A DNA stretch of 64,000 bases from Candidatus Woesearchaeota archaeon (GCA_018668595.1 JABJCP010000026.1:323-64322); one strand, 5' to 3'. Counted from the stretch's first letter, positions 28,107 through 57,805 are shown. Made by a program: numbers and translations. Notes: generated from the sequence alone by a model not told the origin.

Positions 28107-28287
28107 CATTACTGCCTTGGCACATTAATTTGAACATGTAAATGTTCAATTATTTCAAAGCAAAGCTTTGATGATTTCAGCAACGAGTGAAACGAGTTGT
28201 TGAGTTATTGCAGAAAATGGGCTGATTCATGCAAGGCCATTTTCGAGAAGTAAAATTCATAGAATTTTATGAACTGCCGCAGTAATG
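28107..28287. repeat. ~180-bp dispersed multi-hairpin element, copy 1
   Basis: Ends CATTACTGC...GCAGTAATG with five internal hairpins. A second left end follows at 28297-28314. Homologous to 51312-51491 and 57627-57805. Confidence 0.9.
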
Positions 28288-28337
28288 AAAATAAAGCATT
28301 ACTGCCTTGGCATAATACACCACAATACAAAAAATTC

Positions 28338-29267
28338 TCACAACTTATAAATTAATATTGGACCAACAAGATTGAATATTTTTTGCATGATTACCAAAAG
28401 ATGGTGTACAACTTTCAGTTCTCGTTTATCTGTAACTCCTTCAAATAAAGTGTGTGCTTTTTTTACAAATTGCTTTCTAGTATTTCCAATTTTAACTAAT
28501 TTAGCTTTATCAAACTTATAAAAAATCTCATAAAATGTTCGCATTAATTTTCCTGTTTCTTCATATAGTTTAATAATTGAATTATTAAGAGGTTCTTGAT
28601 TTTCATGTTGAGATAAATAATTTAACATATATTTATATTCATCAGCAAGGTTTTCTAAATCTTCAACCACATAATAAATAGGTCCTGTTTTACCATATTC
28701 TTTATGCCCTTTTTTATTTAGAAATCTTCGACAAGAAGTTGTAAATCTATTATTTGCTTCTTCTAAAAATGCAATATTCTTAAGTCGAGAAAACTCTCCT
28801 TTTTTTAGAGCAGATAGACTTTCATCAGCCATAGACATAAGTAAAAGTAGTGTTCGTCTAAGAACAGGATCAAAATCTTCAAACTCTCCTGAAACATGTT
28901 TAATTTTACAGTGGTTTTCTCCCTGATCAATAATTTCATAACCTACTGCTTCCTTCCCTATTGCTTTTTGTACAGATTCTATTAAACTAGGATCTTTAAA
29001 TCTAACTTTAATTTCGTCAACACCTTTTTTGTAAAGTGCAATAATACATCGCAGCACCATAGGATCTAAATTAGTAATATCCAATTCACTTTTGATAACT
29101 TGATTTTCTGCATTTGTTGAAATAAGAATTGTATCGTTTTGTTCTTGCACATCTACTTCATCACCTTTAGTAACACCATACTTAACTGCCCATTTTTTTG
29201 GCAATGATACTAAAAAAGAACTACCTGCAATTTGAATTACTTTTCGTTTAATTTTTATTACCCCCAA
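28338..29267 (-). CDS. AbrB/SpoVT-PhoU phosphate-uptake regulator family protein
   Basis: KRKVIQIAGSSFLVSLPKKWA..GD.V is the AbrB domain, followed by PhoU-like helical repeats (LENLAD). Confidence 0.85.
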   Translation of the reverse strand: MGVIKIKRKVIQIAGSSFLVSLPKKWAVKYGVTKGDEVDVQEQNDTILISTNAENQVIKSELDITNLDPMVLRCIIALYKKGVDEIKVRFKDPSLIESVQKAIGKEAVGYEIIDQGENHCKIKHVSGEFEDFDPVLRRTLLLLMSMADESLSALKKGEFSRLKNIAFLEEANNRFTTSCRRFLNKKGHKEYGKTGPIYYVVEDLENLADEYKYMLNYLSQHENQEPLNNSIIKLYEETGKLMRTFYEIFYKFDKAKLVKIGNTRKQFVKKAHTLFEGVTDKRELKVVHHLLVIMQKIFNLVGPILIYKL

Positions 29268-29272
29268 AATAC

Positions 29273-29340
29273 TGACACATATAATAATTTATTGACACAC
29301 ATAATAATTAATGCCAAATTAATATCACACATATCTAATT
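29273..29340. promoter_or_regulatory. Direct repeats upstream of the PhoU-family regulator
   Basis: TGACACATATAATAATT (29273-29289), TGACACACATAATAATT (29293-29309) and a degenerate third copy (29325-29340). Confidence 0.4.
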
Positions 29341-29992
29341 AACACCCTATATACCTACATAATATTCAATATAGTCTTTAAACTAACTCTTAAAAATTAT
29401 ATACATTATAAATAGCCCCTTTTAATGCTTTAAATAACCTAGTCATATATAAATTTTTCTGAAATATTTATAAAATTTATAAATCTGCCTTTTTTTATAA
29501 AATATATAGTTAAATATAAATATAGCAAGCCCTTTTTAGATAATATTACGGAAAAATGAGTTAAAAAATCATCAAAAAACAGTGATACAGTGTTGAGGGG
29601 CTTCACTTAATTAAAACTAATTAAAATGAATTTCAAAATACTAAAGCATAAACCAAGTATTATTGATGAAATTGAAGATGATCTGCTAAAAAATAACATT
29701 TCGACTGAAAAAGCTCCAAAAACAAATCAAAAAAAAATTTTAGAATCAATAATGTTTAGACAATCATAAAAAATCGTCACATACGAATTTTTAGGATGCC
29801 AAAAATTTCACCATAAATTATAGGACTTTAAACCCAACACAAAAATTCCTATTGAAATTTTTGTGCATAACAAAATCAATATCACTATCAAAAAATCGCA
29901 CACACACGAGTATATATCGCAAAAAAAAGACGTATGACAAAAGAGAGGTAAAGACATCTAATGTTATGCTCTTCCTAAAAGATCTCAACACA

Positions 29993-30038
29993 GGATGCGG
30001 TGGCCTTCTCGCCCTTCTTCTGATTGGCCACCTCATCC
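29993..30038. other. GC-rich intergenic stem-loop
   Basis: GGATGCGGTGGCC-(20 nt)-GGCCACCTCATCC: 13-bp stem with one mismatch in an otherwise very AT-rich spacer. Confidence 0.55.
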
Positions 30039-30181
30039 GCTATATTCCTTAGCTTAAGCAATATTCTAATTAACCAAATTTAACTAAAAAATAAATAAGA
30101 ATAATAATAGTAATAATAACAAATTCGTTTTAGTAAATAGAAAAAATTAAATCAAGAAAGAAAAAAAACAAAATTAATAAT

Positions 30182-31258
30182 TTATTCTAATTCTTCTTCA
30201 ATTGCACTCACTACATATTCAGTTAAGTCAAATTTATCTTTATACAATTCTTGTATTCCTCCAAATTGAACTAAACCATTTACTTCAAGCATTAAAGAAA
30301 CATTTTCTTCTCCTCGAAGATTGCTTGGAACATAAACCGCGCCAGGATCATCTCGATAATAAGCCAAGTTGGTTCTAATAAAATCATACCCTATAAAAAA
30401 TAAATTGAGGTGTTCTGAAAGTCGCTTAGAGAATTTTCGTTCTTGTTCATTTGCCCTTGTTGTTTGAACATCCCCATTCACAACTTTGTTTTTTGTTAGA
30501 CTCAAATTGTTAATAGGAGATTCTGCAATTCGTTTCATGGCAACAAAAGATGATCCTCCAATATCTAAAACTCTAATACTTTCACTTTCATTTATAGTAT
30601 TAAATTCATGAGTTGATTTAATATAAGGCTGTCCAATAAGTTCGTAACCAGACATATATTTTTTAAAAAGTTCTTTTAAATCATCAGTATTCAAAGTTTC
30701 ATTTATGTATTTTGTTTCCACACCCTCTACACAACTTATGTCACAAATATACAAAGATCCTTGTTTTTTTGCTTTCAAAACTCCTTTTCCAAGTCCACCA
30801 TATCTATCTTTTATGATTACTCCATTTGAAAAATCATCAGCAGTATCATTAACCCACTTTACTAGTTCTGAAGGTTTATTTTCTAAAGAATATGTTTTAA
30901 TATATGGAATTCTTAATTGCCTAAACACACCGCACATTTTTAATTTGTCACGAAGTATAACCAACCCATCTATAGAATTTAATATTCTCAATTTTTCTTC
31001 TGCACGTCTAAGTTTTTTTACAACATCTTCAACTTCATAATTATCATAATTCTTAATAAGAGAATAAAATAAATTTCTAATCAAAAGAACTGAATTATCA
31101 CATTCTTTAATTTTTTTTAATCGTCGAGGAAGCGATCTACGATTCCAAATTTCTGCTTCTAAACCTCTATCATTTAAAGAATTAAACAAATCTAATTCTT
31201 GACAATTATTTTTTTTGCTTCCAAAAATTATCACTTTCTTTTTTTTATTTATTTGCAT
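30182..31258 (-). CDS. RimK-like ATP-grasp ligase
   Basis: DKLKM...IPYIKT, IIKDRYGGLGKGV, QPYI, IRVL, GYDFI and LEVNG. Confidence 0.85.
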   Translation of the reverse strand: MQINKKKKVIIFGSKKNNCQELDLFNSLNDRGLEAEIWNRRSLPRRLKKIKECDNSVLLIRNLFYSLIKNYDNYEVEDVVKKLRRAEEKLRILNSIDGLVILRDKLKMCGVFRQLRIPYIKTYSLENKPSELVKWVNDTADDFSNGVIIKDRYGGLGKGVLKAKKQGSLYICDISCVEGVETKYINETLNTDDLKELFKKYMSGYELIGQPYIKSTHEFNTINESESIRVLDIGGSSFVAMKRIAESPINNLSLTKNKVVNGDVQTTRANEQERKFSKRLSEHLNLFFIGYDFIRTNLAYYRDDPGAVYVPSNLRGEENVSLMLEVNGLVQFGGIQELYKDKFDLTEYVVSAIEEELE

Positions 31259-31314
31259 TTTAGCCCTCCCAAAAAAGCATAAAAAATTTGCAACACATCA
31301 ATTTAATTGTTCAT

Positions 31315-32481: not shown

Positions 32482-32685
32482 TTGCGCCCTTCTCCTAAAC
32501 TATCAAACCACAGACAAATTGCCCAGTAGCACATACATACATTCGACATATTTAAACTTAATTCGTCTAGAGTATACAAATTATACAACTTATAAAGTTT
32601 CAATTATAAATGACTAACAAAAATAATCCCTATTTCTAAACTAAAACATACAAATACACCCTTAGATTAACTACTGAATAAGGGT

Positions 32686-32773: not shown

Positions 32774-33565
32774 ATGAAAGGGAGTCAAGATCTAGTTGGA
32801 AAAATAGAATCAATAAAAAGAAGCGCAAATATGCGACAAGTGTTAGCTGATCTAGCAAACGCAGATCCTATGTATGCATTCAATGTACCTCCCAGAATGG
32901 TTATGGCTTATTCTGATAAACAATTAAAATCATATTTAGATGAAGTTTATTCTCAAGAATTTTTTGTGTTTGAAGATCCAAATGATATTGCAAAATACGC
33001 AAAACCTAATGACAGAGTTATTAAAAAAGGTGTTAAAGAATTATTTGAAACAGTATTAGCACACGATCAAGAAGGAAAAGTTACAGAACGAAATACAGAT
33101 TCACAAAAAAAAGTTAGTGTAAATTTTGGTAATAAAACATATTTAATTCCAAGAGATAATCTAAGAATTCCAATAAAAAAAGGATTCATCAACACAAAAG
33201 TTATTGAACGAAAACCAATTCACCAAACAAATGCACTAAATCGTGGCGTTGTTGTTAGTTATGCAGGTAAAGAAATAAGAAAAACAACTTTATATGTTCC
33301 GCATAAATCAGAAGGAATAATAATGCATATTTCTACAAATACTAAAACAAACTCTCCCCTTATAGGTAGCATGTTTATTGCTTGGTTAGATACTGAAAAT
33401 GTGATTCAACACATAAATGAAACAACCCACAGATCTGATTATGGACCTATTTTTAGCGGCATCGTACATTCATATTGGTTCAAACCTAACGAATTAAAAC
33501 TGATTGTAAAAAATAAAGTTCCTTATCAACAAATTTATTCTACACAATTTGAAGACGGTGTTTAA
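32774..33565 (+). CDS. Uncharacterised tandem paralogue 1 of 6
   Basis: Shared N-terminal motif D..(Y/F).(F/Y)NVP...Y.D..L..YL..VYS.EF and C-terminal F(K)P.ELKLIVKN...Y. Confidence 0.85.
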   Translation: MKGSQDLVGKIESIKRSANMRQVLADLANADPMYAFNVPPRMVMAYSDKQLKSYLDEVYSQEFFVFEDPNDIAKYAKPNDRVIKKGVKELFETVLAHDQEGKVTERNTDSQKKVSVNFGNKTYLIPRDNLRIPIKKGFINTKVIERKPIHQTNALNRGVVVSYAGKEIRKTTLYVPHKSEGIIMHISTNTKTNSPLIGSMFIAWLDTENVIQHINETTHRSDYGPIFSGIVHSYWFKPNELKLIVKNKVPYQQIYSTQFEDGV

Positions 33566-34381
33566 ATGACTACAAATAATACAACAGAATTAGGATCATT
33601 TGTAAAAAAAGAAGCTAGAAAACCAGGAGTGGTTAAACTTCTAGAAGCATTAAAAGAAAAAGATGAACTGTTTAATTATAATGTTCCTGCAACAATTTTA
33701 AATGAATATAACGATACAGATCTTATTTCTCACTTAGACAAAATTTATTCTAAACCTGAATTTGCTTTTGATGATCCAGAACTTATTTCAAGATTCATTA
33801 AAGTTGGTTCTAGAGTTGTAAAAAAAGGTGCACTTGAAAACAGAGTTACATTACTAGAAGTAAGAACTCAAGGAAGAATATTCGAAGAGGAATTTGGACG
33901 CGAACTTTATTTTGCAAAAGATTTCTACTCTCCTAGATTTAGACTAGATACTCCTAAAAACAGAAAAAAATACCTTAATTCAAATTTAATACATCCTGCT
34001 CAATTCACTGTTACCGGTAAAAAAGGAGCTTTCAGAACAAAAAAAATAGATCCAATTAAACTAAACGAGTATGGAGAAGTAGAAAAAAATTTGTTTGTTT
34101 TTTATACAGGAAAACCAGTAACTCAAGTAACAACAAGCATCCCTGATAAATCTAAAGGATTGGTAATGGGAATGTATAGACGAACTGATGAACATCAATT
34201 GTCTATAGTATGGGAAGAAAATCCTGGAGTGGTTAATGGAATAAATTCAAACACTCGCAATTACACTCTTAATTCATGCTCATCAAATACAAGATTACAA
34301 CCCAAAGATATCCAACTCATCAAACCAAATAATACTAATTATGCACATCTAAAAAAAGAATGCTTAGGATTAGATCAATAA
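33566..34381 (+). CDS. Uncharacterised tandem paralogue 2 of 6
   Basis: RKPGVVKLLEALKEKDELFNYNVP...LISHLDKIYSKPEF; C-terminal QPKDIQLIKPNN..Y. Confidence 0.85.
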   Translation: MTTNNTTELGSFVKKEARKPGVVKLLEALKEKDELFNYNVPATILNEYNDTDLISHLDKIYSKPEFAFDDPELISRFIKVGSRVVKKGALENRVTLLEVRTQGRIFEEEFGRELYFAKDFYSPRFRLDTPKNRKKYLNSNLIHPAQFTVTGKKGAFRTKKIDPIKLNEYGEVEKNLFVFYTGKPVTQVTTSIPDKSKGLVMGMYRRTDEHQLSIVWEENPGVVNGINSNTRNYTLNSCSSNTRLQPKDIQLIKPNNTNYAHLKKECLGLDQ

Positions 34382-34393
34382 GGTGAATAAAAA

Positions 34394-35152
34394 ATGACAA
34401 ACACGGATTCAGATAACCTCGATACAATTGTAATCACGACTAAAAGAAAACCAGGAATAGTCAAACTTCTAGAAGCACTAAAAAAACAAGATGAAATATT
34501 TAATTATAACGTGCCTCCTGTAGCTCGAACAACATTTGATGACGATACACTTCTAAAACATTTAGAACAAATTTACTCAGAAGATAATTTCGTTGTTGAA
34601 GACCCTATTTTACTCTGGCAATATGCGAGAACAGGATTAATGGTTGAAGCAACTACAGACATAGAAGATAGCCAAGAACTTGTAAACACAAATGATCAGG
34701 GAAAAATATCTCATGTATATAGTAAAGAAACAGTTGTGATTAAAATAAACAAAAAAAACGTTCATGTTTCTAAAAAAGATATTGTAGTTCTATGCGAGCC
34801 TGGTTTCTTCACAAAGCCACATAACATTCCAAAAAAATCAGATGATGTTGAATTAAAAAAAGGACAAGAAGTTCAGTATAAAGGAAAACCAATAAAAGAT
34901 ATTAAAAGTTTAATCTGCAGAGGATCAAAAGGCGTTATTTCAGATAAAGTTAGAATAAACAGAGAAGACTGGTTTTTTGTTACTTGGCTAGATAATCCTG
35001 AAAATAAATTCAAAACAACTAGAAAAATAGGAGAATACGGTTATGTTGGAACTAGACCTTCAATATTTGCAAAAGCTGCCTATGTAAAACTTTTTGTTCC
35101 GAATAGAATTAATTATCATGAACTTTATCAACAGTGTGTAAGAGGTAAGTAA
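34394..35152 (+). CDS. Uncharacterised tandem paralogue 3 of 6
   Basis: RKPGIVKLLEALKKQDEIFNYNVP...LLKHLEQIYS; GGTGA RBS. Confidence 0.85.
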   Translation: MTNTDSDNLDTIVITTKRKPGIVKLLEALKKQDEIFNYNVPPVARTTFDDDTLLKHLEQIYSEDNFVVEDPILLWQYARTGLMVEATTDIEDSQELVNTNDQGKISHVYSKETVVIKINKKNVHVSKKDIVVLCEPGFFTKPHNIPKKSDDVELKKGQEVQYKGKPIKDIKSLICRGSKGVISDKVRINREDWFFVTWLDNPENKFKTTRKIGEYGYVGTRPSIFAKAAYVKLFVPNRINYHELYQQCVRGK

Positions 35153-35158
35153 AATAAA

Positions 35159-35995
35159 ATGAGCGATCCACATTTACTAAAAGAAGACAGAGAAAAAGAG
35201 TCAAAATCTCAAAAACCAAAAGTAAGAAAACCAGGACTAGAAAAACTAATTACAACACTAAAAGAAAAAGATAAATTATTCGAATTTAATGTTCCTTCAC
35301 AATTATTAAAATTATACGACGACAAAGCACTTCTTGCACATTTAGAAACTGTTTATTCTCAAAAAGAATTTATTATTGATGATGCAGATAACGTAAAAAA
35401 ATATGCACGTGCAGGAGACTTTGTTCTAAAAAAAGAACGATGGGAAACAACTAAAGTAATTGTAAAGACTTGCGAAACAGGAGTTGTAAAAAATAAAGAC
35501 GGAAAATTTTATGTTCAATTTAAAAAAAGCAGTTATTGGATTGAAAGCGACGATAAACTAATAAATCAAAAAAACCTAAAAGTTATTTCTGAACCAAAAA
35601 GTTTAGGTCGTAAACAAAAATATGATTCAAAACCTACATTAAACACATTTGAACAAATTAAAAAAGGAATGATTGTTGAGTACAGTGGAAAACCCCTTGA
35701 AGAAGATAAAAAATATGTTAGTAATGGTGCACGAGGAGTTATAGTAATGATTGATAAAAATCTAAGCGATGAAAAAGGAAATCCTATAGGCGAACACGAT
35801 CATCAAAAAAGAAATCCTATGTTCATAACATGGCTTGCAGGAGAAGATTGTAAACTAACAACATGGCAAGGTTATAATTCTGAAAAATTTTCATATTACC
35901 CAGACAAACTTTTTTATCCAAAAGATGTTCAACTTATCAAGAAAAATAATATTGACTATCAAGCACTTTACAAAACACACGTAATAAGGGAATAA
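35159..35995 (+). CDS. Uncharacterised tandem paralogue 4 of 6
   Basis: RKPGLEKLITTLKEKDKLFEFNVP...LLAHLETVYSQKEF; C-terminal FYPKDVQLIKKNN..Y. Confidence 0.85.
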   Translation: MSDPHLLKEDREKESKSQKPKVRKPGLEKLITTLKEKDKLFEFNVPSQLLKLYDDKALLAHLETVYSQKEFIIDDADNVKKYARAGDFVLKKERWETTKVIVKTCETGVVKNKDGKFYVQFKKSSYWIESDDKLINQKNLKVISEPKSLGRKQKYDSKPTLNTFEQIKKGMIVEYSGKPLEEDKKYVSNGARGVIVMIDKNLSDEKGNPIGEHDHQKRNPMFITWLAGEDCKLTTWQGYNSEKFSYYPDKLFYPKDVQLIKKNNIDYQALYKTHVIRE

Positions 35996-36033
35996 AACAA
36001 TGAAAAAATATCAATTAAACAAATACTATTAAA

Positions 36034-36855
36034 ATGACAGAACTAGATTTTTTAGAAACAAAAGTGCAAGAACAAGTACCAAGAAAGAATACTCTAGAAG
36101 AATTGCTAAAAAAATTAAAACAAAAAGACAGATTATTTGACTATAATGTTCCTGAGACAATAATAAAGTTATACAATGACCATCAATTATTAGATCATTT
36201 AAAAATAGTATATGCTCAACCCGAATTTATTGTTGACGATCCTCGAGTTGTTAGAGATAACTCATCTAATAATGACATAGTTATTAAAAAAGGATACGTT
36301 GAAACAAAAAAAACAGTACTTACCAAAAACACAAACGGAACAATCAAAAGAGAGTGTGACAACTTATATGCTATTTTTAATGGAATTAAATTTTTAATTA
36401 GTGAAGGAGAAATCAAAGAAGGAGAAAGAAAGATTGCTAAAAACGACATTCAAATATATTCCAAAAAAAGAGCAATTGGATCTAAAAAATACAACCCTCC
36501 GATAAACGCTATGGAATATAAAGAAAAATTAACTGAAAAATCATCAATAAAATACATAGGACCAGAAAAAAAAGAAAGAGATCAATATGTAGATAATGGA
36601 ACTAAAGGAATTATTGTTTTTAATAATTATAATACGAAAAATAATAGAGGAACGCATGGAGATAAATTATTCATTACTTGGATTGCAGGACAAGAAAAAA
36701 AATTCTCTACACACAATTACCTGCAAAATAAAAATGGTGACTTCAAATATTATCCCAAATTATTTTTTAAACCCGAAGATATTAAATTAGTCGTTAAAAA
36801 CAATATCGATTTTGATAAATTATATGAACAAGTATTAAACAAACAACAACAATAA
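36034..36855 (+). CDS. Uncharacterised tandem paralogue 5 of 6
   Basis: LEELLKKLKQKDRLFDYNVP...LLDHLKIVYAQPEF; C-terminal FFKPEDIKLVVKNN. Confidence 0.85.
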   Translation: MTELDFLETKVQEQVPRKNTLEELLKKLKQKDRLFDYNVPETIIKLYNDHQLLDHLKIVYAQPEFIVDDPRVVRDNSSNNDIVIKKGYVETKKTVLTKNTNGTIKRECDNLYAIFNGIKFLISEGEIKEGERKIAKNDIQIYSKKRAIGSKKYNPPINAMEYKEKLTEKSSIKYIGPEKKERDQYVDNGTKGIIVFNNYNTKNNRGTHGDKLFITWIAGQEKKFSTHNYLQNKNGDFKYYPKLFFKPEDIKLVVKNNIDFDKLYEQVLNKQQQ

Positions 36856-36893
36856 AAAAAAAAAAAAAAACTAATCAGACAAATACAATTAAA

Positions 36894-37673
36894 ATGACAG
36901 ATCCACAATTACTAACAGATGAATGCAAAGAAGCAAATCAACTTCATAGCGACGGGCTTAAGTCTTTATTAGAAAAATTAGAAAAAGAAGATACTTTATT
37001 TAAACATAATGTTCCTGAATCAATCATTTCGTTATATTCTGAAACTGAACTTATCCAATATCTAGATCGCGTTTATTCTCAACCAGAATTTATTGTTGAA
37101 TCTGAGAAAACAATTAATGATCATGCCAAAGAAGGATGTAAAGTTATAGCAAAAAAAGATATAGAACTTAGTAAATTGCTTTCACCCATCAAAGGAGATA
37201 CAGGATTTGTTGAAGAGAATACTAGTTGCGAAAGTGTTTACGTAAAGTTTAGAGATCTTAGCATAAATCGTAAAGACAAAGTTAGGTCAGTTCATAAAAG
37301 TGATCTTGTGGTTTATGGAAGAAAAATAATGGGAGTTTCTAAAACATTTAAAGAATCTAAACCTGCTACAGCATATAAAAAACTTAAAAAAAATATGTTA
37401 ATGGAATATGTAGGAGAAAACAGAAAACACTTACTTAAATTTATTCCAAAAAATACAGAAGGAATAATAATGCGAAAAGGATATGGTTGGAATGTAGTAA
37501 TTGCTTGGCGCAAAAATAAAACAGTTAAACTTCAATATAATTCACTAGCTGCATTACAACACGGAGACAAATATGCCGATTCATTTGACAATTTAAAACT
37601 TCTAATTAAAAACGAAGTTCCTTATCGAAAACTAAAACATACTTGTTTAACTGATAATAAACTAACTGCCTAA
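36894..37673 (+). CDS. Uncharacterised tandem paralogue 6 of 6
   Basis: GLKSLLEKLEKEDTLFKHNVP...LIQYLDRVYSQPEF; C-terminal LKLLIKNEVPY. Confidence 0.85.
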   Translation: MTDPQLLTDECKEANQLHSDGLKSLLEKLEKEDTLFKHNVPESIISLYSETELIQYLDRVYSQPEFIVESEKTINDHAKEGCKVIAKKDIELSKLLSPIKGDTGFVEENTSCESVYVKFRDLSINRKDKVRSVHKSDLVVYGRKIMGVSKTFKESKPATAYKKLKKNMLMEYVGENRKHLLKFIPKNTEGIIMRKGYGWNVVIAWRKNKTVKLQYNSLAALQHGDKYADSFDNLKLLIKNEVPYRKLKHTCLTDNKLTA

Positions 37674-41453: not shown

Positions 41454-43112
41454 ATGAGTACTAAATTAAAACAAGGTTTAGAAGTTCGAGCTTTAAGAAA
41501 CTTAGGTCCGCAAAATAATCACGCAAATAACAACTATTATTATAAAGGAACAATTGAAAAAGTAGCACTCGGATCTGCAGGTAAAATAATTGACAATAAC
41601 AATCCTTCTAGGATCCAAGTTAGATTAAATAATGGAATGGACTGGTGGTTTCATCCTGATGAACTTAGCATATTACGCTCCAGTATTGAACGAGAATTAA
41701 ATTGTGTTTTACCTGATGCAAGAGGAATGGAACGACACCCCTTTGTTCAACTTGCTCAAACAAATCCTGTGTTCTTAGTTGATGGAAAAATATACGCAGC
41801 AGTAGATGGAAAACATAGTGGGTCTTATTTTGAACAAAAAAAATTTTTTGGAACAAAAAAAATGCGTGTTGAAGAAGTAGGTGATTTTGATTCTATAGAT
41901 GATTTGTTTTTCAAACGAGCACACCTAAAAATTAAAGAAGCAGAAGTAAAATATACAAAAAAAATTATTCAAGATACAAAATTGGATCAATTAATTAAAC
42001 CTGCAACAGATACTGCTAACCTAATCATAAAAACAATATATCCTAATTTAAAAAATGGAGTTCATGAAGAAAAACTTTCGGAATTATTATCTGATGACGA
42101 AGATGTCACTACTAGCGACCCTGTTTTTGTTAGACGAAGATTAACTCCTGAAGAATTTAGAGAAATTCAAGAAAAAAGAGAAAAAGTAAAAGCGAAATTA
42201 GAAGAAAATATAGAATATTTATTAGAACTTGCAGGAATATCTGAACTAAACAGAGAACATTCTGCAAATAAAACTGCATACGAATCAAGACTAGATACTA
42301 TTTTTTTAAGTAAAGAAAATTGCGACGATGAATTTGAATCTCCTCTTAACTTAGCATTTAAAGATAGACCTATAGCAATTATAAACAATAAAGTTTATGA
42401 TTTAGTAAGAACTGAATTAGATGAATGTAAACAAAGTTTGAATATAGAAGGAAGAAGATTTGCACTAAATAAAACAAAAAAAACATTAGAAATTGAAGAA
42501 AAAAATTATTATACTAAATTTATATCTTTATTAAGAGTCCATACTGTAATGACTCAGTTAGATGAAAATAAAATATTAAATGATCTTGATTCTTTTGAAA
42601 ATGAACAAATAGATGCTGCATCACTAGACGAGCACAGAATAGAAAATTTCGGATTTATTAGATATGCGAGAGATTATTATGCGTTTTTAGAAGTTCCTGA
42701 ATTTGCAATAAAAAGTCAGATGGATGGTAAACATTATTTATTTCGAAAAGCAAGAGTAGGTATTCGAGTTTGGAACAACGGTTCAAATTTAAAATATAGT
42801 GAACAAATAGTTATGATCGATAACAACAACCACCCATTCTTACATAATAAAAGAAGTAATTATGCAAAACTATGTTTAGGAAATCAAGCATTTCCAACAA
42901 GCGGTAAAGATACAGGAGATGTTGTTGCAAAACGACTTAGAAGATGTAAAGAAATGTTAATGTTCGGTTATACTCATAAAAAATATGCCGAATGTTATGA
43001 ATTGAGAAAGTGTATACTTTGTAACTACAATCATTTCAGAGATAACTTAGTTGAAGAATCATATTTGAAAGAAAAACAAATTCCAATTATACGCGGAGGC
43101 CCAAGAAAATGA
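41454..43112 (+). CDS. Multidomain protein: N-terminal SH3-like barrel, helical middle, C-terminal E2 (UBC-like) domain
   Basis: C-terminal YAFLEVPEF...IVMIDNNNHPFLHNKRSNYAKLCLGN matches the E2 HP...LCL signature with a candidate catalytic Cys. Cys-rich tail follows. Confidence 0.7.
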   Translation: MSTKLKQGLEVRALRNLGPQNNHANNNYYYKGTIEKVALGSAGKIIDNNNPSRIQVRLNNGMDWWFHPDELSILRSSIERELNCVLPDARGMERHPFVQLAQTNPVFLVDGKIYAAVDGKHSGSYFEQKKFFGTKKMRVEEVGDFDSIDDLFFKRAHLKIKEAEVKYTKKIIQDTKLDQLIKPATDTANLIIKTIYPNLKNGVHEEKLSELLSDDEDVTTSDPVFVRRRLTPEEFREIQEKREKVKAKLEENIEYLLELAGISELNREHSANKTAYESRLDTIFLSKENCDDEFESPLNLAFKDRPIAIINNKVYDLVRTELDECKQSLNIEGRRFALNKTKKTLEIEEKNYYTKFISLLRVHTVMTQLDENKILNDLDSFENEQIDAASLDEHRIENFGFIRYARDYYAFLEVPEFAIKSQMDGKHYLFRKARVGIRVWNNGSNLKYSEQIVMIDNNNHPFLHNKRSNYAKLCLGNQAFPTSGKDTGDVVAKRLRRCKEMLMFGYTHKKYAECYELRKCILCNYNHFRDNLVEESYLKEKQIPIIRGGPRK

Positions 43113-44083
43113 AATTATTAGATGAATTATTATCTCAAGATGAACCCACACAAAATTTTGTTCGAAATGCTATTAAACAAGAACTTGGACGAATAGACAT
43201 TACAACAGAAGCATTTGAAAAAGCATACACTTATGCTAAACTTGTTAAAGAAATTTCAGGATTACCAAATATGGAATGTGGAGGATATTTGACAATTCCA
43301 AAAGATTGCACAGATAGAATTGCACGAGATGCTTTTCTTGCATCTGATCAAGATGTTAGAGAAGGATTATTTCAGATTCAAGCAAAAGATGTTATCAAAG
43401 CAGGTAAAGAAATAAGTGCTAAAGGCCATAGAGTTGTTGGTTGGTGGCACAGTCATGGAATGATGGATACATTTTTTTCAAACCTAGATGATCAAGGACA
43501 AGAAACAGTACTTAATGAAATTGCTGGATCAAACCACATAATAATATCCCAAGAAGAAGAAATTGCTGACCCTCAAGTTATTAGTGAAGGAAAAATTTTA
43601 GTTATTAGTGATCCTTCTAATCCTGGTCGAAGATATGAACTTGAATTTAATAGAAAACCTCTTTTTGTTCAAGGTACCCGGTTTAAATTAATTGAAGATA
43701 AAAAAATTAGTTTCTCATATGGATTGGTTGTTAATTGTCAACCTGGAAAACGAAAACCTTATGCAGAAATTGCTACGCAAGAGTATTGTGGTTTTTGTAA
43801 GCAATCAACTTATGACAGTCGTGTTGTTGGAGTTAGACTACATGATTCGGGTGCGTTTTATTTAGATGAAACTAAAATGAAAGAAGAAATAAAAAAGAAA
43901 GTTAAAATGCGAGGAATATTAAGCAAAATGTTGGGCGGCATATTTGGAAATGGCTTAGGTCAAAATAAGTTATTAGGTGATGAAGCGTTTGGAGATTCTG
44001 AAAATAAATCTGATTCACACGAATCCCTGCCTTATGCTATTAGAATTTCTAATGAACCCATCCCTCCTAAACAAAAAGAATAA
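43109..44083 (+). CDS. JAB/MPN+ (JAMM) metallo-isopeptidase
   Basis: MECGGYL...WWHSHGMMDTFFSNLD matches E...HSH-x7-S-x2-D. ATGA overlap with the E2 gene. Confidence 0.92.
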   Translation: MKLLDELLSQDEPTQNFVRNAIKQELGRIDITTEAFEKAYTYAKLVKEISGLPNMECGGYLTIPKDCTDRIARDAFLASDQDVREGLFQIQAKDVIKAGKEISAKGHRVVGWWHSHGMMDTFFSNLDDQGQETVLNEIAGSNHIIISQEEEIADPQVISEGKILVISDPSNPGRRYELEFNRKPLFVQGTRFKLIEDKKISFSYGLVVNCQPGKRKPYAEIATQEYCGFCKQSTYDSRVVGVRLHDSGAFYLDETKMKEEIKKKVKMRGILSKMLGGIFGNGLGQNKLLGDEAFGDSENKSDSHESLPYAIRISNEPIPPKQKE

Positions 44084-44199
44084 GGGCATAAAAATATTCA
44101 AAAAAAAATAATAAGAAAAACAAATAAGAAAATAAAAACAAAAAAACTAATAAAACTAATAAAAATAAAAAACAAAATAAAAAATAAAACAAAATAAAA

Positions 44200-45801
44200 A
44201 TGGTTGTTGACGACAGATTTAATAGACAAGAATTAATAAAAGGTTGGAATCAAAATAGTTTGAAGAAAACCAGAGTAGCTATAATAGGTTCAGGTCCGTT
44301 AGCAGAATCTACGTCCGCAGCATTAACTGCATTAGGAATCGGATGCATTGAAGTTTATGATAATAGAATTGTAGAAAAAAATAAGAAAGAAAATTTAGGG
44401 AGGGAAGGTTTTTTAACTTTTACCGCGAGAGAAAAAGATTCTAGAACAAAAAGTATTGAACATATTTTATCTAAGATTAATCCTACAGCTCAAATAACAG
44501 GAATTAATTTATCTTTGGAAAAAACTAATTTATTAAATATCCTAGGAACTCCTGATTTAATTATTGACACAACCAATTCTCCCAAATCTAAACAACAAGT
44601 TTTGGACTACAGTCAAACAAAAAGAATAAAAGTGATAAGTGCTTCTGCAAATAATCTTACAGGAAAGTTTTTCATAAACTGCGGAGAATCGTTCAAGAAT
44701 GAATATTTACTTCAAGAATATTCAGATGATACTCAAGGTAATACTATTAGCGGAATTCTCGGAGGAATAATTACAGAAGAAGTGAGAAAAATTGTTATGC
44801 CTCTTGAACAAGATGCAAAATTAATAGACCAGTTAGAATATTCATTAGATTCTCCTAACCGATTTAACAGTTCAAAAAAGCAATCCGAAGAAAGTAAAAA
44901 AAGTAAAAAGAATAAAAAAAGCAAACAAAATAAAAAAAGCGAACAAAATAAAAAAAACAGAACATTGAACAATAATAATTACAGATCTAGCAATATTTCA
45001 TTATTAAATAAAAAAGTTTTGATTATTGGTGCTGGTGCTCTTGGAAATTTTGCTGCTTTAAACATTGCACTCGAAGGAGTGGGCCATATTGATATTATGG
45101 ATCATGACGATATTGAATCAACCAATCTTAATAGACAAATTTTATTTTATGATGCTGTTGGAAAAATGAAAGCAACTGCATTAGCTGAAAGAATTTCTGA
45201 AATAGTTAATCCTAAAAATATTTATGGAAAATATGAAAATAAAAATTTAATAAACATTGGAGGAATAATTGACAAACTTGATGAAGAGTCAACGTATTTT
45301 GAAGAAAATAAACCTGATTTAATTCTTGATTGTGTAGATAGTTTTGCAGTGAGAGCAATAATTAATTATTATGCAGTAAGGCATCAAATCCCATTAGTTA
45401 GTGGAGGTACTAATCCAAGATCTGGACAAGTTTCGATTTATGTCCCTGGTAAAAGTAGTTGTCTTGATTGTAAATTAGGTGTGGAAGAAGCTCTTGCAGA
45501 ACAACGTGCTGCTGCAAGTTGTCGTTATGCTCCAGATCCTAGCGTTATTATGACTAATCAAATTGTAGGTAATATGATTGTTGGTGAAGCTGTTAAAATT
45601 TTAACTAATGATATTACTCATGCAGAAGATTATGTAAAAAAAATTCTAAAGTACGATTCAACTTCTGCTCAAAGAGGCGGTTTGATTGGATCAAAATATC
45701 CTTGTGATTGCACAAAACCCGAAGTAAATCAGTGGCTAAAAAATGTTGATAAAAAAGCACCTAAGAGAAAAAACACAGTTTCAAAAGATGCAAATGAATA
45801 A
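44200..45801 (+). CDS. E1-like enzyme with tandem ThiF domains (degenerate N-terminal plus active C-terminal)
   Basis: Domain 1: DRFNRQELI.GWNQ...IIGSGPLA, with a degenerate Gly loop. Domain 2: IIGAGALG, DHDDIESTNLNRQ, DCVD, CLDC, a candidate catalytic Cys in AAASCRY, and C-terminal CDC. Confidence 0.92.
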   Translation: MVVDDRFNRQELIKGWNQNSLKKTRVAIIGSGPLAESTSAALTALGIGCIEVYDNRIVEKNKKENLGREGFLTFTAREKDSRTKSIEHILSKINPTAQITGINLSLEKTNLLNILGTPDLIIDTTNSPKSKQQVLDYSQTKRIKVISASANNLTGKFFINCGESFKNEYLLQEYSDDTQGNTISGILGGIITEEVRKIVMPLEQDAKLIDQLEYSLDSPNRFNSSKKQSEESKKSKKNKKSKQNKKSEQNKKNRTLNNNNYRSSNISLLNKKVLIIGAGALGNFAALNIALEGVGHIDIMDHDDIESTNLNRQILFYDAVGKMKATALAERISEIVNPKNIYGKYENKNLINIGGIIDKLDEESTYFEENKPDLILDCVDSFAVRAIINYYAVRHQIPLVSGGTNPRSGQVSIYVPGKSSCLDCKLGVEEALAEQRAAASCRYAPDPSVIMTNQIVGNMIVGEAVKILTNDITHAEDYVKKILKYDSTSAQRGGLIGSKYPCDCTKPEVNQWLKNVDKKAPKRKNTVSKDANE

Positions 45802-50386: not shown

Positions 50387-51301
50387 ATGTTATACAAAAT
50401 TAATGATCCGAATTTTATTAAACTTGTAGAAAAAGAAATTCCGTTAGATCGTCTTGAACAGAGACTTCGACCAAAACTAGGTCTAGAGGATAGTGATGCA
50501 GAATATAAAGCTCACGATAATTATAGAGATTTTTCAGGAGAAGGTTTTTTAGGAAAAGATGAATCTCTTCTCGAAGTCATTCATTCAGATTGGCAAATTC
50601 TTAGCAAATACAAAACAACTCATGCAGAAATTGCTAATGCTCTTGAAAAAGTTGTTGCAGGAGATTATGCACTTCATCCAGATTATGAATTTCGCGATGA
50701 TGGAATGGCAAGTTTAGGAACTCAAGGATGTCCTTGGTATTGTGGAGTTAATGGACAAAATACAGGCGTTATTACTAAGAAAAATTTAACAGATGATGAA
50801 GAACAAGAAGCAATTTTTATCCAATTACCACTATTACTTGGCAAAAATTCTAAAGAAGACTATAAAGAAATAATTAAAATCAAACAAGATATTAAAAAAA
50901 GATTAAAATCAGGACCTACCATTTATGCTCCAATAACTGATCTTCTTCCGCATTTAATTAGAGATCATTATTTCTTTGAAGGAAAAGACGTTCCTTATCG
51001 TGCAGATCCTGAATTCCTAATTAAAGCTCTCAACCTTGGACTTTCAAGATTTGAAACTCCTATTTTTACAATTTATGATGAAGCAACTCAAACAACTCAA
51101 TCACAGCTCACATCTGACGAAACTGAAGAAATAGTCTTAGAAGAATTAATACTAGAAAATCCATCTGAATTTTTAGAAGATACAAAAAAAGAAAAAAAAC
51201 TAAGTAAAGATTCTAATGAACTCACTGAAGCTGAAATGAACGCAGCAAGAACTTGGGGAGCTAAAATAAAGTTTGGTTTCAAAAAACTATTTAGAAAATA
51301 A
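50387..51301 (+). CDS. Hypothetical protein
   Basis: 304-aa ORF with conserved-looking motifs GFLGKDESL, QGCPW and HLIRDHYFFEG..YRADP; function not recognised. Confidence 0.7.
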   Translation: MLYKINDPNFIKLVEKEIPLDRLEQRLRPKLGLEDSDAEYKAHDNYRDFSGEGFLGKDESLLEVIHSDWQILSKYKTTHAEIANALEKVVAGDYALHPDYEFRDDGMASLGTQGCPWYCGVNGQNTGVITKKNLTDDEEQEAIFIQLPLLLGKNSKEDYKEIIKIKQDIKKRLKSGPTIYAPITDLLPHLIRDHYFFEGKDVPYRADPEFLIKALNLGLSRFETPIFTIYDEATQTTQSQLTSDETEEIVLEELILENPSEFLEDTKKEKKLSKDSNELTEAEMNAARTWGAKIKFGFKKLFRK

Positions 51302-51311: not shown

Positions 51312-51491
51312 AATTACTGCCTTGGCATATTAGTTGAACACAGGGTGTTCAATTATTTCAAAGCAAAGCTTTGATGATTTCAGTAACGATTGAAATGAGT
51401 TGCTGATATACTGCGTAAGAACTGCTGATTTATGCAAGCAGTTCGTCGATATGTCATACTTCATAGAAGATGATAACTTGCCGCAGTAATG
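51312..51491. repeat. ~180-bp dispersed multi-hairpin element, copy 2 (most diverged)
   Basis: AATTACTGCCTTGGCA...CCGCAGTAATG, followed by a partial second left end at 51508-51538. Confidence 0.9.
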
Positions 51492-51554
51492 AAAAAATAA
51501 ATAACTAAATTACTGACTCGGCATATTAGCTAAACACGCCGCATTCTATAGTTC

Positions 51555-53674: not shown

Positions 53675-53749
53675 TTTATCCCTCTTTTAGATCAATAAAA
53701 AAATAGATTTTAAAAAAAATTGGTTTGATCTATACACATCTACAAATAA

Positions 53750-54313: not shown

Positions 54314-54470
54314 TTTGGGCTCTTAAAATTTTTGCTTCATAAAAAATTAAATAAAAAAAATCAATTAAACAATTAATTAAAATATGAAATTAAAACATAA
54401 ATTATAAACAACAAATTAAAAATAAAATTTAATAAATTTAATAATTTAAATAAAACAATTAATTAAAAAA

Positions 54471-54836: not shown

Positions 54837-54890
54837 TTTTTGCACCTTAAGTCAAAGTAGAGTAAACAAATACGCACAGTTTGATTCAAC

Positions 54891-55184
54891 TTATGCGATT
54901 TTTTTTAGGTGTACTGGATGTACTACTAATGTTTTCTCTTTGTTGATATCTTTAATCATTATTTCATAGCATTTACCACGCGTACATTTAACAACTCCAG
55001 TTTTACCATGGAATCTTCTAAAGTACATTCCTTTTTGATATGCAGTTTCTGCTAATAATTGAACTTTGTCCCCTTCTTCCATTTTTTGGAAAAATTTGGA
55101 TATGCTAATTTTACCTTTTCGTCTTATGGGTTTCTTGAATTTATTTCTTGTTTTTCTTCTCGCTCCCCCAACTCTACTTACCAT
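54891..55184 (-). CDS. rpl21e: 50S ribosomal protein L21e
   Basis: RRKTR, GDKV, RRFHGKTGVV and VHPVHLK. Confidence 0.96.
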   Translation of the reverse strand: MVSRVGGARRKTRNKFKKPIRRKGKISISKFFQKMEEGDKVQLLAETAYQKGMYFRRFHGKTGVVKCTRGKCYEIMIKDINKEKTLVVHPVHLKKIA

Positions 55185-55605
55185 TTAAAACACTCTCCAA
55201 TCGCTTTTTAACTTATTTTTGTACTTTCACACTCTTTTTACGCAACATGCGCATTTTAGCGCAATATACTCATTTACTTATTATTAACTTGTTATTATCC
55301 TGATTATTATTAAATTCCTGTCAGTCAATAAGCAGGAACAATTTCTAAATACTTTATAAATCTAAATATTTAAATCTATGCTTTTTTAAAAGGAATTTTA
55401 ATGGGTATAAAAAGGTTTCGCACAAATCCCTGAATTTAACACTATTTAAGACAATTAACAAACTAACCCTATTAAAAGTGTTATGAATTTAGAGTGATAC
55501 AAAAATTCTAGAAAATAGAAAAGTTTAAATATTAAGGTAAATTGTATTTTTGTTGATAAAAACGAGGTTTTTAATTTTCAATAAAGAAAAAGGGAGGGAG
55601 TATAA

Positions 55606-56019
55606 ATGGGTTTTTTTGACAAACTTAAAGAAAAAATAGCAACACGTTCTGATGATTTTGAACCTGAAGAACATCAACCAGAGGACTATGTTGAAATCAG
55701 TCATGATTCACAAGGAGATAAACATTCTAGAATATTAGTAAGACCATTTGTTATTGAAGAATTTGGAGACATCAAACCAGTTCTTGATTGTTTAAGAGAA
55801 GGCTACACAATAGCATTAGTAAATATTCGTCCACTTAAAGATAAAGATCTTGTTGAACTTAAGCGTGCAATAAATAAACTTAAGAAAACTTGTGAAGCTA
55901 TCGAGGGTGACATTGCAGGTTTTAGCGATGATTGGGTTGCAGTAACTCCAAGCTTTGCAAAGATTTATAGAGAAAAAACACCAAGAGTTAAAAGTCTTGA
56001 AGCAGATGAAGATTTCTAA
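55606..56019 (+). CDS. sepF: Cell division protein SepF
   Basis: VLDCLREGYTIALVNI, LKRAINKLKK..EAIEGDIAG and VTP; GGAGGG RBS. Confidence 0.9.
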   Translation: MGFFDKLKEKIATRSDDFEPEEHQPEDYVEISHDSQGDKHSRILVRPFVIEEFGDIKPVLDCLREGYTIALVNIRPLKDKDLVELKRAINKLKKTCEAIEGDIAGFSDDWVAVTPSFAKIYREKTPRVKSLEADEDF

Positions 56020-56179
56020 ATCATTTTAAATCAATTAATTTTTTCTTTTTTAATTATTAATTTCTCAAACTTTATTTTTTTATTTACTTTAATTTTCTGG
56101 TTTAAACTAGTCTTATTTTTTCTTTAGTCAATTTCTTTATAGTAAAATATTTAAACATAAAACAATTCTCTGTTTTGAT

Positions 56180-56782
56180 ATGAGTGAAGAAGAATCAAAT
56201 CAAGAAAATTCAGAACAGCAAAGTGAAACTGCACCAGCAATTGATGGAGAGTTCAAAGCTGTAACTCCTGCAGATATTCTCGGCGGGGAAACTTGTCCAA
56301 TTTGTAGCACTAAAAATTTGACATTAAGAGAAGAAGAATTAGAAATTCCTTTTTTTGGTAATGTTTATGTTTTTTCTATGAGTTGTTCAAATTGTAAATT
56401 TCACAAAGCAGATCTTGAGTGCAAAGACCAAAGAGGTCCTGCGAAATATACATTAGATATTGATTGTGAAGAAGATATGAAAATAAGAGTTATTAGAAGC
56501 TCTGAAGCAACTATTAAAATTCCTAGAATCAGCGATATAGAACCAGGTCCTGCAGCACAAGGATTTGTTACAAATGTTGAAGGAGTGTTTTCAAGAGTTA
56601 AACAAAGACTTGAACATTTAAAAGAAAGTGAAGAAGATAATGATGTCAAAAAGAAAATTCGCAATATGATCAAAAAAATTAATAGAATTACGTGGGGTCA
56701 GGATAAAGCTAAATTAATTATTGAAGATCCTAGCGGTAATAGTGCAATTATTTCAGAAAAAGTTAAGAAAGGTAAACTGTAA
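56180..56782 (+). CDS. ZPR1 zinc-finger protein
   Basis: CPIC, IPFFG, CSNC, RVIRS, IEPGP, TNVEG and EDPSGNS. Confidence 0.93.
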   Translation: MSEEESNQENSEQQSETAPAIDGEFKAVTPADILGGETCPICSTKNLTLREEELEIPFFGNVYVFSMSCSNCKFHKADLECKDQRGPAKYTLDIDCEEDMKIRVIRSSEATIKIPRISDIEPGPAAQGFVTNVEGVFSRVKQRLEHLKESEEDNDVKKKIRNMIKKINRITWGQDKAKLIIEDPSGNSAIISEKVKKGKL

Positions 56783-56872
56783 AAAAAAGTAAACAATTTT
56801 AATAAAAAAATAAGAATAATAGAAAAATATTACAATAATCAAAAATAGTAAATTTTCTTAGGGGTGGTTTGT

Positions 56873-57619
56873 TTGGTAAAAATTGGCATCATTGGTGGTT
56901 CAGGATTAGATGATCCTAAAATTCTTAAAGATTCTAAAGAAGTAGAAATTAAAACTCCTTATGGAGATCCAACATCTGTTTTGACAGAGGGTACAATAAA
57001 CAATGTTAATGTTTTTTTGATTGCAAGACATGGGAAACAACATCAGCATTCTCCTACAAGTGTTAATTATAGAGCAAATATTTGGGCACTTAAAGAAGTT
57101 GGTTGTACTCATATTATTGCAACTACTGCTGTCGGTAGCTTGCGAAAAGAAATTGATCGAGGACATCTTGTTATCATGGATCAGTTTATTGATTTTACTC
57201 GACATAGAAAAGTTACTTTTCATGACACATTTGAAAAGGGTGCAATTCATACTCCTATGGCAAATCCATTCTCTGAAGATCTTAGAAACTTATTAGTCAG
57301 CGGATGCAAATCTTTAAATCTTGATCATCATGAAAAAGGAACAGTAATTACTATTGAAGGTCCTAGATTTTCAACTAAAGCAGAAAGTCGCATGTTTCGT
57401 GCTTGGGGTGCAGATATTATTAACATGTCTATTGCTCCTGAATGTATTCTTGCAAATGAAATTGGAATTCCTTATGCTGCTGTTGCTATGAGTACTGATT
57501 ACGATTGTTGGAAAGAAGATGAAAAACCAGTTACTTGGGATGCAATACTTGAAATTTTTAAAGCAAATGTGGGCAAGGTTACAAAGTTATTATTCGAAGT
57601 TATTCCCAAAGTTAAGTAA
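56873..57619 (+). CDS. mtnP: S-methyl-5'-thioadenosine phosphorylase
   Basis: IGIIGGSG, TPYG, RHG, NYRANIWAL, EGPRFSTKAES and STDYDCW. Start placed at TTG 56873 after GGGGTGG. Confidence 0.93.
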   Translation: MVKIGIIGGSGLDDPKILKDSKEVEIKTPYGDPTSVLTEGTINNVNVFLIARHGKQHQHSPTSVNYRANIWALKEVGCTHIIATTAVGSLRKEIDRGHLVIMDQFIDFTRHRKVTFHDTFEKGAIHTPMANPFSEDLRNLLVSGCKSLNLDHHEKGTVITIEGPRFSTKAESRMFRAWGADIINMSIAPECILANEIGIPYAAVAMSTDYDCWKEDEKPVTWDAILEIFKANVGKVTKLLFEVIPKVK

Positions 57620-57626
57620 ACAACAA

Positions 57627-57805
57627 CATTACTGCCTTGGCATATTAGTTGAACACAAAGTGTTCAATTAATTCAAAACAAAGTTTTGATGAATTCAGCG
57701 ACGAGTAAACCGAGTTGCTGAGTTACGGCAGAAAATGGTCTGATTCATGCAAGACCATTTTCGTTAACTAAAATTCATAGAATTTTATAAACTGCCGCAG
57801 TAATG
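57627..57805. repeat. ~180-bp dispersed multi-hairpin element, copy 3
   Basis: CATTACTGCCTTGGCA...ACTGCCGCAGTAATG; same hairpin order as the other two copies. Confidence 0.9.

Follow-up and report, generated by a model that had tools for sequence, protein, structure and literature searches.

We have analyzed a 64,000-nt stretch of DNA from Candidatus Woesearchaeota archaeon (GCA_018668595.1 JABJCP010000026.1:323-64322, referred to below as the window) and found in it three copies of a non-coding repeat of ~180 nt. Together with nine further sites in metagenome contigs of Saanich Inlet type, 12 distinct sites were found in all, located in unrelated short intergenic spacers of one marine DPANN population. 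The explanation that we favor, tentatively and a little short of evenly balanced, is a lineage-restricted, dispersed, co-transcribed structured repeat that is probably mobile and possibly excised from mRNA tails by the host tRNA-splicing endonuclease (EndA). The copies in the window, with their covariance model (CM) scores, are:

28107..28287, + strand: element copy 1, 181 nt, closing stem and hairpins P1-P5, CM 196.1 bits
51312..51491, + strand: element copy 2, 180 nt, first base A and not C, CM 193.2 bits
57627..57805, + strand: element copy 3, 179 nt, between MTAP and APRT, CM 205.8 bits

A conserved five-hairpin fold

An earlier examination of the DNA by itself (the sequence-only reading) had placed three copies at these positions, all on the + strand, and both alignment and nhmmer (E-values of ~1e-62) agreed with it. 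The copies can be aligned from end to end at pairwise identities of 77-87%, and the 15-mer of the left end occurs seven times versus 1.4 expected. Also present were the 9-bp terminal inverted repeats described there, with arms CATTACTGC/GCAGTAATG and a single mismatch at the left end of copy 2, which reads AATTACTGC. The RNA fold of each window copy is a multiloop of five hairpins closed by a terminal stem, with minimum free energies of -59.7, -62.2 and -67.1 kcal/mol (copies 1, 2 and 3) and folding z-scores of -6.07, -6.05 and -10.72; none of 200 shuffled sequences folded as well. The five internal stems and the compensatory pairs quoted in the sequence-only reading were all found.

Covariation was measured on a trimmed alignment (A3) of 13 sequences from the 12 sites, with a mean pairwise identity of 75.5% (range 66-87%). 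Standard pairs occupied 96.4% of the pair cells and only 3.6% were broken, so that the divergence accumulated after insertion was not neutral. Two-sided changes affected 23-24 of the 54-55 pairs (~80 cells), and not one of 500 shuffles reached these values. As a control, sliding the 3' partners by 1-3 columns left 29-50% of the cells paired and at most eight two-sided pairs. The claim that pairing is preserved through sequence change was thus borne out. The P4 stem was the most variable segment (majority frequency 0.68), while 9 of the 10 columns of its 10-nt loop, GAUUYAUGCA, were invariant across the 12 sites; the P5 loop and the junction before P3, UGAUGAUU, were conserved as well. Invariant loops on variable stems indicate that what is constrained is the pairing of the stems, and the sequence itself in the case of the loops. 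The P4 and P5 stems of copy 2 are of a "B" flavor common to the copies in contigs L006 (L006a) and L008, and L006a has a compensatory change between arms that lie 160 nt apart (CAGUACUGC/GCAGUACUG). In the window the P4 loops are:

28224..28233, + strand: P4 loop of copy 1, GATTCATGCA
51427..51436, + strand: P4 loop of copy 2, GATTTATGCA
57742..57751, + strand: P4 loop of copy 3, GATTCATGCA

The copies outside the window were retrieved with an exact-ends pattern that returned 10 stretches in JGI metagenomes and no match among the GTDB species-representative genomes. Of the 14 occurrences used (13 of them aligned), 10 therefore have ends fixed by the search pattern, and only the three window copies and L006a, which was met incidentally, give unbiased ends.

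The sequence-only reading had considered the element unannotated, and we agree. Rfam 15 gave no match at the gathering score in the window or in the 10 loci, and none in the window at E<=0.05; relaxing the limit to E of up to 10 for copy 1 returned only matches with E of 1.9-6.4 and scores far under the cut-offs. The family supplies a covariation-supported fold that is not in Rfam, together with a ready covariance model. Scanning with ARAGORN found no tRNA or tmRNA, which argues that the element is not linked to tRNA. Over the whole of the ~190 kb considered here (window 1-64000, contigs L003-L012, L056 and L062) neither a tRNA gene nor an Rfam family was found (ARAGORN; Rfam in gathering mode, with E<=0.05 on the window). 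An archaeon of ~1 Mb should show several tRNA genes in such a length; they may be clustered elsewhere, or be disrupted by introns and so missed.

Several other identities were considered and rejected. In a C/D box sRNA, boxes C (RUGAUGA) and D (CUGA) are joined by a terminal stem into a k-turn, with guide spacings of 10-12 nt. The element does contain UGAUGA and CUGA, but its CUGA takes part in Watson-Crick pairs of P3, the boxes are spaced 26 nt apart, GAUGA differs among the copies and the Rfam family sR11 scored 13.3 bits against a cut-off of 39. Protein coding was discarded given that no frame is open in all copies, the substitutions compensate each other in pairs and a search with the longest open frame gave no match; a conserved 18-codon ORF beginning at the loop AUG is interrupted by a stop codon in copy 3. 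The hammerhead-like CUGAUGA/GAAA does not form a core contiguous with its stems. Finally, a pseudoknot that would join the P4 loop to the P3-P4 junction (J3/4, UUGCA) is not backed by covariation, since the junction is variable and the loop is not.

Gene context and signs of insertion

The element is found close to the 3' ends of genes. It had been noted that each window copy starts 8-23 bp after a + strand stop codon, and the stops that we located end at 28084, 51301 and 57619, leaving gaps of 22, 10 and 7 nt. The genes concerned are listed below; 3' of copy 3 lies APRT, at 57881-58408.

27113..28084, + strand: gene upstream of copy 1, 323 aa, weak PHP domain, proposed carrier transcript
50387..51301, + strand: gene upstream of copy 2, 304 aa, no Pfam family
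56864..57619, + strand: gene upstream of copy 3, MTAP-type phosphorylase

Over the whole set, 10 of the 12 sites have the element 4-22 nt 3' of a co-oriented stop codon. At L010 it lies 253 nt past such a stop, beyond an A/G-rich tandem repeat. In the region L010:984-1256 this repeat (periods of 30 and 57, at 1001-1214) lies between the TAA of the gene and the element, and the reading frame of the gene stays open for 91 codons past its stop, coding for a K/R/Q-rich low-complexity peptide that runs into the element. As a statement of position, the proximity to an upstream stop was thus confirmed, but as a signal of orientation it fails in convergent gene pairs. Five sites face a convergent gene and are uninformative in this respect, because being sense to the upstream gene is automatically true there. 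Among the sites with co-directional neighbors the element was sense in 7 of 8 (p about 0.035).

The strand of the fold was clearer. The sense RNA folds better than the antisense at all 12 sites, by a mean of -7.6 kcal/mol, and the alignment contains 17 G-U cells versus 8 A-C cells. These results favor a fold that belongs to the + sense single strand, which by the fold strand alone does not separate RNA from single-stranded DNA (ssDNA). On the sense strand the flanks of the element are 61-64% A and 16-18% T, versus 43% A and 35% T, often with T-runs, in ordinary 3' flanks of the window. Between the upstream gene and the element there is no T-run of terminator type, so that transcriptional read-through into the element is expected. 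The neighboring genes are mutually unrelated. Three of the sites are at genes of purine or AMP metabolism (between MTAP and APRT, between PurA and PurB, and at an AMP/thymidine-phosphorylase-like gene). This association was not taken as a sign of a riboswitch, considering that five sites face convergent genes and that the other neighbors are unrelated.

We have also found evidence that the element behaves as an insertion. In L055, the closest relative available (MTAP 77% identical), MTAP and APRT are separated by a single nucleotide (TAA-A-ATG) versus 261 nt in the window, and several contigs end within the element, as expected of a repeat. This empty site and the assemblies broken inside the element support the view of a dispersed, insertion-like repeat taken in the sequence-only reading. 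All strain contigs that include the flanking genes keep the element with the same spacing; no presence/absence polymorphism was detected among them, so the element is fixed in the population. The absence of a target-site duplication was likewise confirmed, the longest string shared by the flanks of a copy averaging 6.7 nt versus 6.35 nt for flanks taken across copies, and consisting throughout of A-rich low-complexity sequence.

Comparison of strains provided one more view of these sites. Contigs L004, L007 and L008 represent one site in different strains. A comparison of L008 with L007 gave a divergence of 8.9% for the whole upstream gene, of 2.8% for the last 250 nt of this gene and of 1.1% for the element, a result that is consistent with constraint and is not significant. 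Both of the changes in the element are located in the 3' bulge of the closing stem (AAC to AUU), the length of which stays at 3 nt. The element at L008:13601-13834 and that at L004:1960-2215 share the site, and synteny is lost ~60 nt 3' of it, with different genes following. The element adjoins a rearrangement breakpoint here. In L008, a long array of small co-directional ORFs fills 42-13413, and some of these are paralogous to the gene that precedes the element.

Two of the window copies are followed by a truncated second left end (L'), as the sequence-only reading had described, including the 22-bp direct repeat at copy 1:

28291..28317, + strand: L' of copy 1, a copy of the upstream flank (ATAAAG) and a partial left end (CATTACTGCCTTGGCATAATA)
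51508..51550, + strand: L' of copy 2, a diverged partial left end (AATTACTGACTCGGCATATTAGCTAAACAC...), nhmmer 51499-51549

The left-end part after copy 1, at 28297-28317, falls within the direct repeat 28101-28122 / 28291-28312 (repeat family D12) and can pair with the right arm, and the L' of copy 2 has the private first-base A of that copy. A third L' follows L006a, so that L' is found at three of the five convergent sites versus none of the seven co-directional ones. Every L' bears the private variants of its own left arm together with a copy of the upstream flank, and the variant of L006a preserves complementarity to the right arm. On the opposite strand, the A-rich spacer between right arm and L' becomes a T-run, which would lie in the loop of a hairpin formed by right arm and L', immediately 3' of the convergent stop. 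L' may be a terminator hairpin of the convergent gene, or a by-product of insertion.

The distribution of the family is narrow. The source contig of the window holds three sites in ~81 kb, and CM R1 detected no further copy in its additional 17 kb. With the same model no copy was found in 29 eIF2-gamma-neighborhood loci of relatives or in MTAP relatives. In IMG/VR the left-end 15-mer gave only chance matches (80 viral loci, rejected by R1) and an internal pattern gave none, blastn versus plasmids and phages returned no match, a search for more copies with the longest open frame of the element gave no candidates, and the end sequences led in the literature only to an unrelated primer. The family is lineage-restricted. 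The element is the sole part of the JGI contigs that matches the window, and these contigs have no orthologous genes in common with it or with one another except for L004, L007 and L008; they may come from elsewhere in the same genome or from very close ones. The same DNA recurs in a number of assemblies from a single Saanich Inlet sample series ("HAWL17-1_SAMN0522..."), in the JGI metagenomes Ga0257119, Ga0209142 and Ga0233431 and in the NCBI metagenome-assembled genome (MAG) GCA_018671815.1. The window encodes eIF2-gamma, TYW3 and the ribosomal proteins L10e and L21e, which makes its host archaeal. Its G+C content is 29%, that of the element 30-43%. The nearest GTDB genomes are MAGs labelled Woesearchaeota or Nanoarchaeota with an eIF2-gamma identity of only 60-70%, and the closest MTAP homologues are 77% identical. 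Judging from these sequences, the host is an uncultured marine archaeon of DPANN type, Woesearchaeota- or Nanoarchaeota-like. In this lineage the element disrupts short-read assemblies and sits inside purine-salvage and AMP-synthesis operons.

The closing stem and the competing explanations

The fold had been described correctly in the sequence-only reading, which overlooked the geometry of the closing stem. Its parts, in RNA letters, are:

outer helix h: 9 bp, CAUUACUGC/GCAGUAAUG
5'-strand bulge: 3 nt, CUU (CUC in L006a)
central helix H: exactly 4 bp, GGCA/UGCC
3'-strand bulge: 3 nt, A-N-Y, mostly AAC, also ACU, AUU and AAU
inner helix h': 2 bp, continuous with P5

In the window they correspond to:

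28107..28124, + strand: copy 1, 5' half, h CATTACTGC, bulge CTT, H GGCA, h' CA
28270..28287, + strand: copy 1, 3' half, h' TG, bulge AAC, H TGCC, h GCAGTAATG
51312..51329, + strand: copy 2, 5' half, AATTACTGC, CTT, GGCA, TA
51474..51491, + strand: copy 2, 3' half, TA, ACT, TGCC, GCAGTAATG
57627..57644, + strand: copy 3, 5' half, CATTACTGC, CTT, GGCA, TA
57788..57805, + strand: copy 3, 3' half, TA, AAC, TGCC, GCAGTAATG

The bulge-helix-bulge (BHB) motif of Archaea is defined as a 4-bp helix with two 3-nt bulges on opposite strands and is cut by the splicing endonuclease; besides tRNA and rRNA, its known substrates include an intron of the cbf5 mRNA and a 46-nt intron in the 5'UTR of HVO_1309, and the (alpha-beta)2 and epsilon2 enzymes of Crenarchaea, Nanoarchaea and ARMAN cut relaxed forms as well (PMC7714728, PMC6379350). 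The closing stem of the element has the 4-bp central helix and the opposite 3-nt bulges, and so resembles in its geometry the cut site of the archaeal tRNA-splicing endonuclease. The sizes of the bulges and of the central helix were constant in all 13 sequences given that h' pairs, the ends of 10 of them being fixed by the search pattern. Helix h was 99% paired, with one compensatory change (L006a). Helix h' was 81% paired, with the variants C-G, U-A and U-G in one pair and A-U and G-C in the other, and one two-sided change in each. No DNA copy of a spliced form was found.

The explanation that we favor would involve three steps. The element would have spread as a non-autonomous mobile element, by a mechanism that leaves no target duplication. 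It would be transcribed as the tail of the mRNA of the upstream gene or as an intercistronic piece, with its structure acting as RNA; such co-transcription is suggested by the sense orientation and by the lack of a T-run ahead of the element. EndA would then cut the BHB of the closing stem and free a five-hairpin core of ~155 nt, probably circularised by RtcB, and the mRNA left behind would be either religated or end in the 9-bp hairpin. This cutting is the least certain of the steps, and taken by itself we consider it doubtful. The fuller picture of a mobile "BHB cassette", in which a five-hairpin RNA rides on mRNA 3' ends and operon spacers and is excised by EndA and circularised, would be less probable still.

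Like the BHB substrates of EndA, the closing stem combines a 4-bp helix and opposite 3-nt bulges with two further helices, in an archaeal host, and as in the processing stems of rRNA a long helix made of both ends encloses a structured RNA. In contrast to those substrates, cleavage of the element is putative, its inner helix has only 2 bp, the enclosed RNA is a repeated five-hairpin module and its location is 3' of the stops in ~12 unrelated transcripts, not within one mRNA, a tRNA or an rRNA. In Thermoproteales, transposed tRNA introns likewise occur as similar BHB-bounded copies at many sites (Fujishima et al., 2010, as summarized in PMC4090602). The likeness to the element would be that of a BHB-like bounded repeat at many sites of one archaeal lineage; those introns are short and lie inside tRNA genes, whereas the element has 180 nt, a conserved fold and a location in mRNA tails and spacers.

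Structured intergenic repeats that undergo processing within transcripts are familiar from bacteria; for archaea there are hardly any descriptions, and fewest for DPANN lineages with their tiny, compact genomes. Most archaea lack RNase III. The ERIC repeats of enterobacteria are intergenic, non-autonomous and co-transcribed, similar to the Correia/NEMIS repeats of Neisseria. The latter are 100-150 nt long, with TA target duplications and 26-bp inverted repeats, and their paired ends form a hairpin that is cut by the host RNase III, altering the fate of the mRNA (PMC2649163). The element is likewise intergenic and non-autonomous, with paired ends as a candidate processing site for a host enzyme, although Correia/NEMIS are bacterial, carry TA duplications, depend on RNase III and have no sequence similarity to it. 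Of the systems compared, it is to such co-transcribed, enzyme-processed repeats that the element comes nearest in its way of working, with a candidate processing site of the archaeal BHB type; cutting by EndA would be the archaeal counterpart of the RNase III processing of Correia/NEMIS. If EndA excision is true, a new class of substrates would be added for the archaeal splicing endonuclease; the BHB cassette, if true, would have no precedent outside the genes for tRNA and rRNA as a BHB-bounded element that is repeated and apparently transposed, and would be a tractable case for the spread of archaeal BHB introns.

A number of observations weigh against the explanation that we favor. The helix h' has just 2 bp, and in L005, L012 and L003 it is weakened or missing, so that these copies would be relaxed hBH forms. 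Moreover, the invariance of the closing stem is partly there by construction, owing to the exact-ends retrieval of 10 of the 14 occurrences. The stems are near-perfectly Watson-Crick with 3-nt loops and just 2.5% of G-U pairs, and in this they look more like DNA palindromes than like a typical functional RNA. The orientation signal is weak: the second element of L006 (L006b) is antisense to both of its neighbors, and selection against insertions that hit the promoter of the next gene can also explain the closeness to stop codons. The partial second left ends are not accounted for by co-transcription and excision, and neither a mobility mechanism nor a partner protein was found in the ~190 kb searched.

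The most serious competitor, unlikely in our opinion, is an ssDNA hairpin transposon of the REPIN/PATE kind, in which the fold would serve a Y1/HUH enzyme (RAYT or IS200/IS605 TnpA-like) encoded elsewhere, the orientation would follow the replication strand and transcription would be incidental. REP/REPIN and PATEs are extragenic, without target duplication and with strand-specific hairpins, often at the 3' ends of genes, and the element shares with them its extragenic location, its lack of target duplication, the maintenance of hairpin pairing and the frequent position at gene 3' ends. The strand asymmetry of the fold would be expected too, since G-T wobbles are tolerated in DNA, as would near-perfect palindromic stems with 3-nt loops and conserved, paired ends. 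The three window copies are all on one strand, and L006a and L006b, 1 kb apart, have the same orientation though L006b is antisense to its neighbors. However, REP/REPIN and PATEs measure 20-100 nt, consist of one hairpin or a hairpin doublet, have a conserved tetranucleotide and are associated with a Y1/HUH gene. The left flanks of the element have no fixed target tetranucleotide (AAAG, ACAG, ACAA, AAAA and CCCA were found), no HUH or TnpB-like gene was found in the ~190 kb (the genome being incomplete), Y1_Tnp had no match among the ORFs scanned, considering the matches listed (25 of 44 families, again from an incomplete genome), and Rfam gave no IS605-orfB or omega-like match. The ends of REP and IS200/IS605 are separate subterminal hairpins, which the element lacks, its two ends pairing with each other across the whole element and round the five hairpins. 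Nor is a counterpart known there for the invariant P4 loop of 10 nt or for the asymmetric bulge of 3 nt. The sequence-only reading had left open a choice between an RNA element and an ssDNA mobile element; neither is singled out, and the G-U pairs and the orientation lean to RNA.

That reading had also proposed membership of the REP/PATE/MITE type, of which the insertion-like behavior stands and the class assignment does not, given the lack of a duplication and of a transposase with these ends, and the pairing between the ends. A decaying MITE of an ordinary DDE transposon, with CATTACTGC...GCAGTAATG as terminal inverted repeats, seems to us very improbable. Size, copy number, intergenic location and inverted ends would fit, the terminal repeats being MITE-like (9 bp plus 4 complementary bp), and a DDE transposase gene is present in a related contig:

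L005:800-1948, - strand: IS4/IS5-type DDE transposase (PF01609, E 2.4e-17)

Yet this insertion sequence (IS) has possible 31-nt imperfect inverted repeats at 658-688 and 2316-2346 that are unrelated to the ends of the element. Pfam scans found no transposase among the window ORFs, none with the ends of the element was detected in the ~190 kb of an incomplete genome, and nowhere does an element end on its own adjoin an ORF. A target-site duplication is lacking, the 3-nt indel between the "repeats" is kept in every copy, and five internal stems that remain 96% paired despite ~25% divergence do not indicate decay.

Two more possibilities, each improbable though less so than the MITE, were considered. 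Independently transcribed small-RNA genes, acting in trans via the invariant loops from a promoter of their own in the A-rich spacer, would agree with the loops kept on variable stems, with the conserved sense-strand fold and with a G+C content of the element above the 29% of the genome, as in RNA genes of AT-rich archaea. But the 4-22-nt spacer at 10 sites is too short for BRE/TATA ~25 nt upstream without overlapping the gene, the upstream flanks have no common motif beyond A-richness, and a dozen diverged copies of a trans-acting RNA would be unusual in so compact a genome. Alternatively, the compensatory changes could be purely mutational, if template switching in DNA quasi-palindromes kept the hairpins perfect in a functionless repeat. 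The almost perfectly Watson-Crick stems with short loops, and the fact that the hairpin stems are the most variable segments, would be explained in this way. Left unexplained are the invariant P4 and P5 loops and the conserved junction, the strand asymmetry of the wobbles, the change in L006a between arms 160 nt apart and the covariation in h', and the near-identity of the element between strains with a flanking gene that differs by 3-9%.

Other features of the window and contigs

The window is compact with the exception of two stretches without an ORF of at least 80 aa, 29268-30181 (914 nt) and 58409-59165 (757 nt), and in the first of them other assemblies call just a 47-aa ORF. Six tandem co-directional paralogous ORFs of 252-278 aa are located at 32774-37673 (repeat families D2 and D4), the first of them without a Pfam match, an arrangement similar to the array of small ORFs in L008. 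Two tandem DEAD-box helicase paralogues at 20321-23559 (repeat families D11 and D13) differ in that the second has a repetitive C-terminal tail rich in RG/SR (D14, 23212-23324).

At 43109-45801 a JAB-domain protein adjoins a ThiF-family E1-like protein, which suggests a ubiquitin-like (SAMP-type) conjugation pair. At 59957-64000 of the window and at L056:8629-15386 there is a group of four or five radical-SAM genes with an APH-family phosphotransferase gene and small ORFs, which may be a peptide- or metabolite-modification cluster. Contig L054, of uncertain lineage and with a 74%-identical MTAP homologue, contains at 6436-9225 genes for adenylosuccinate synthetase and for ISAZ013-type and IS66-type transposases in fragments, as if there were many frameshifts, or as if this long-read contig were rich in pseudogenes or in errors.

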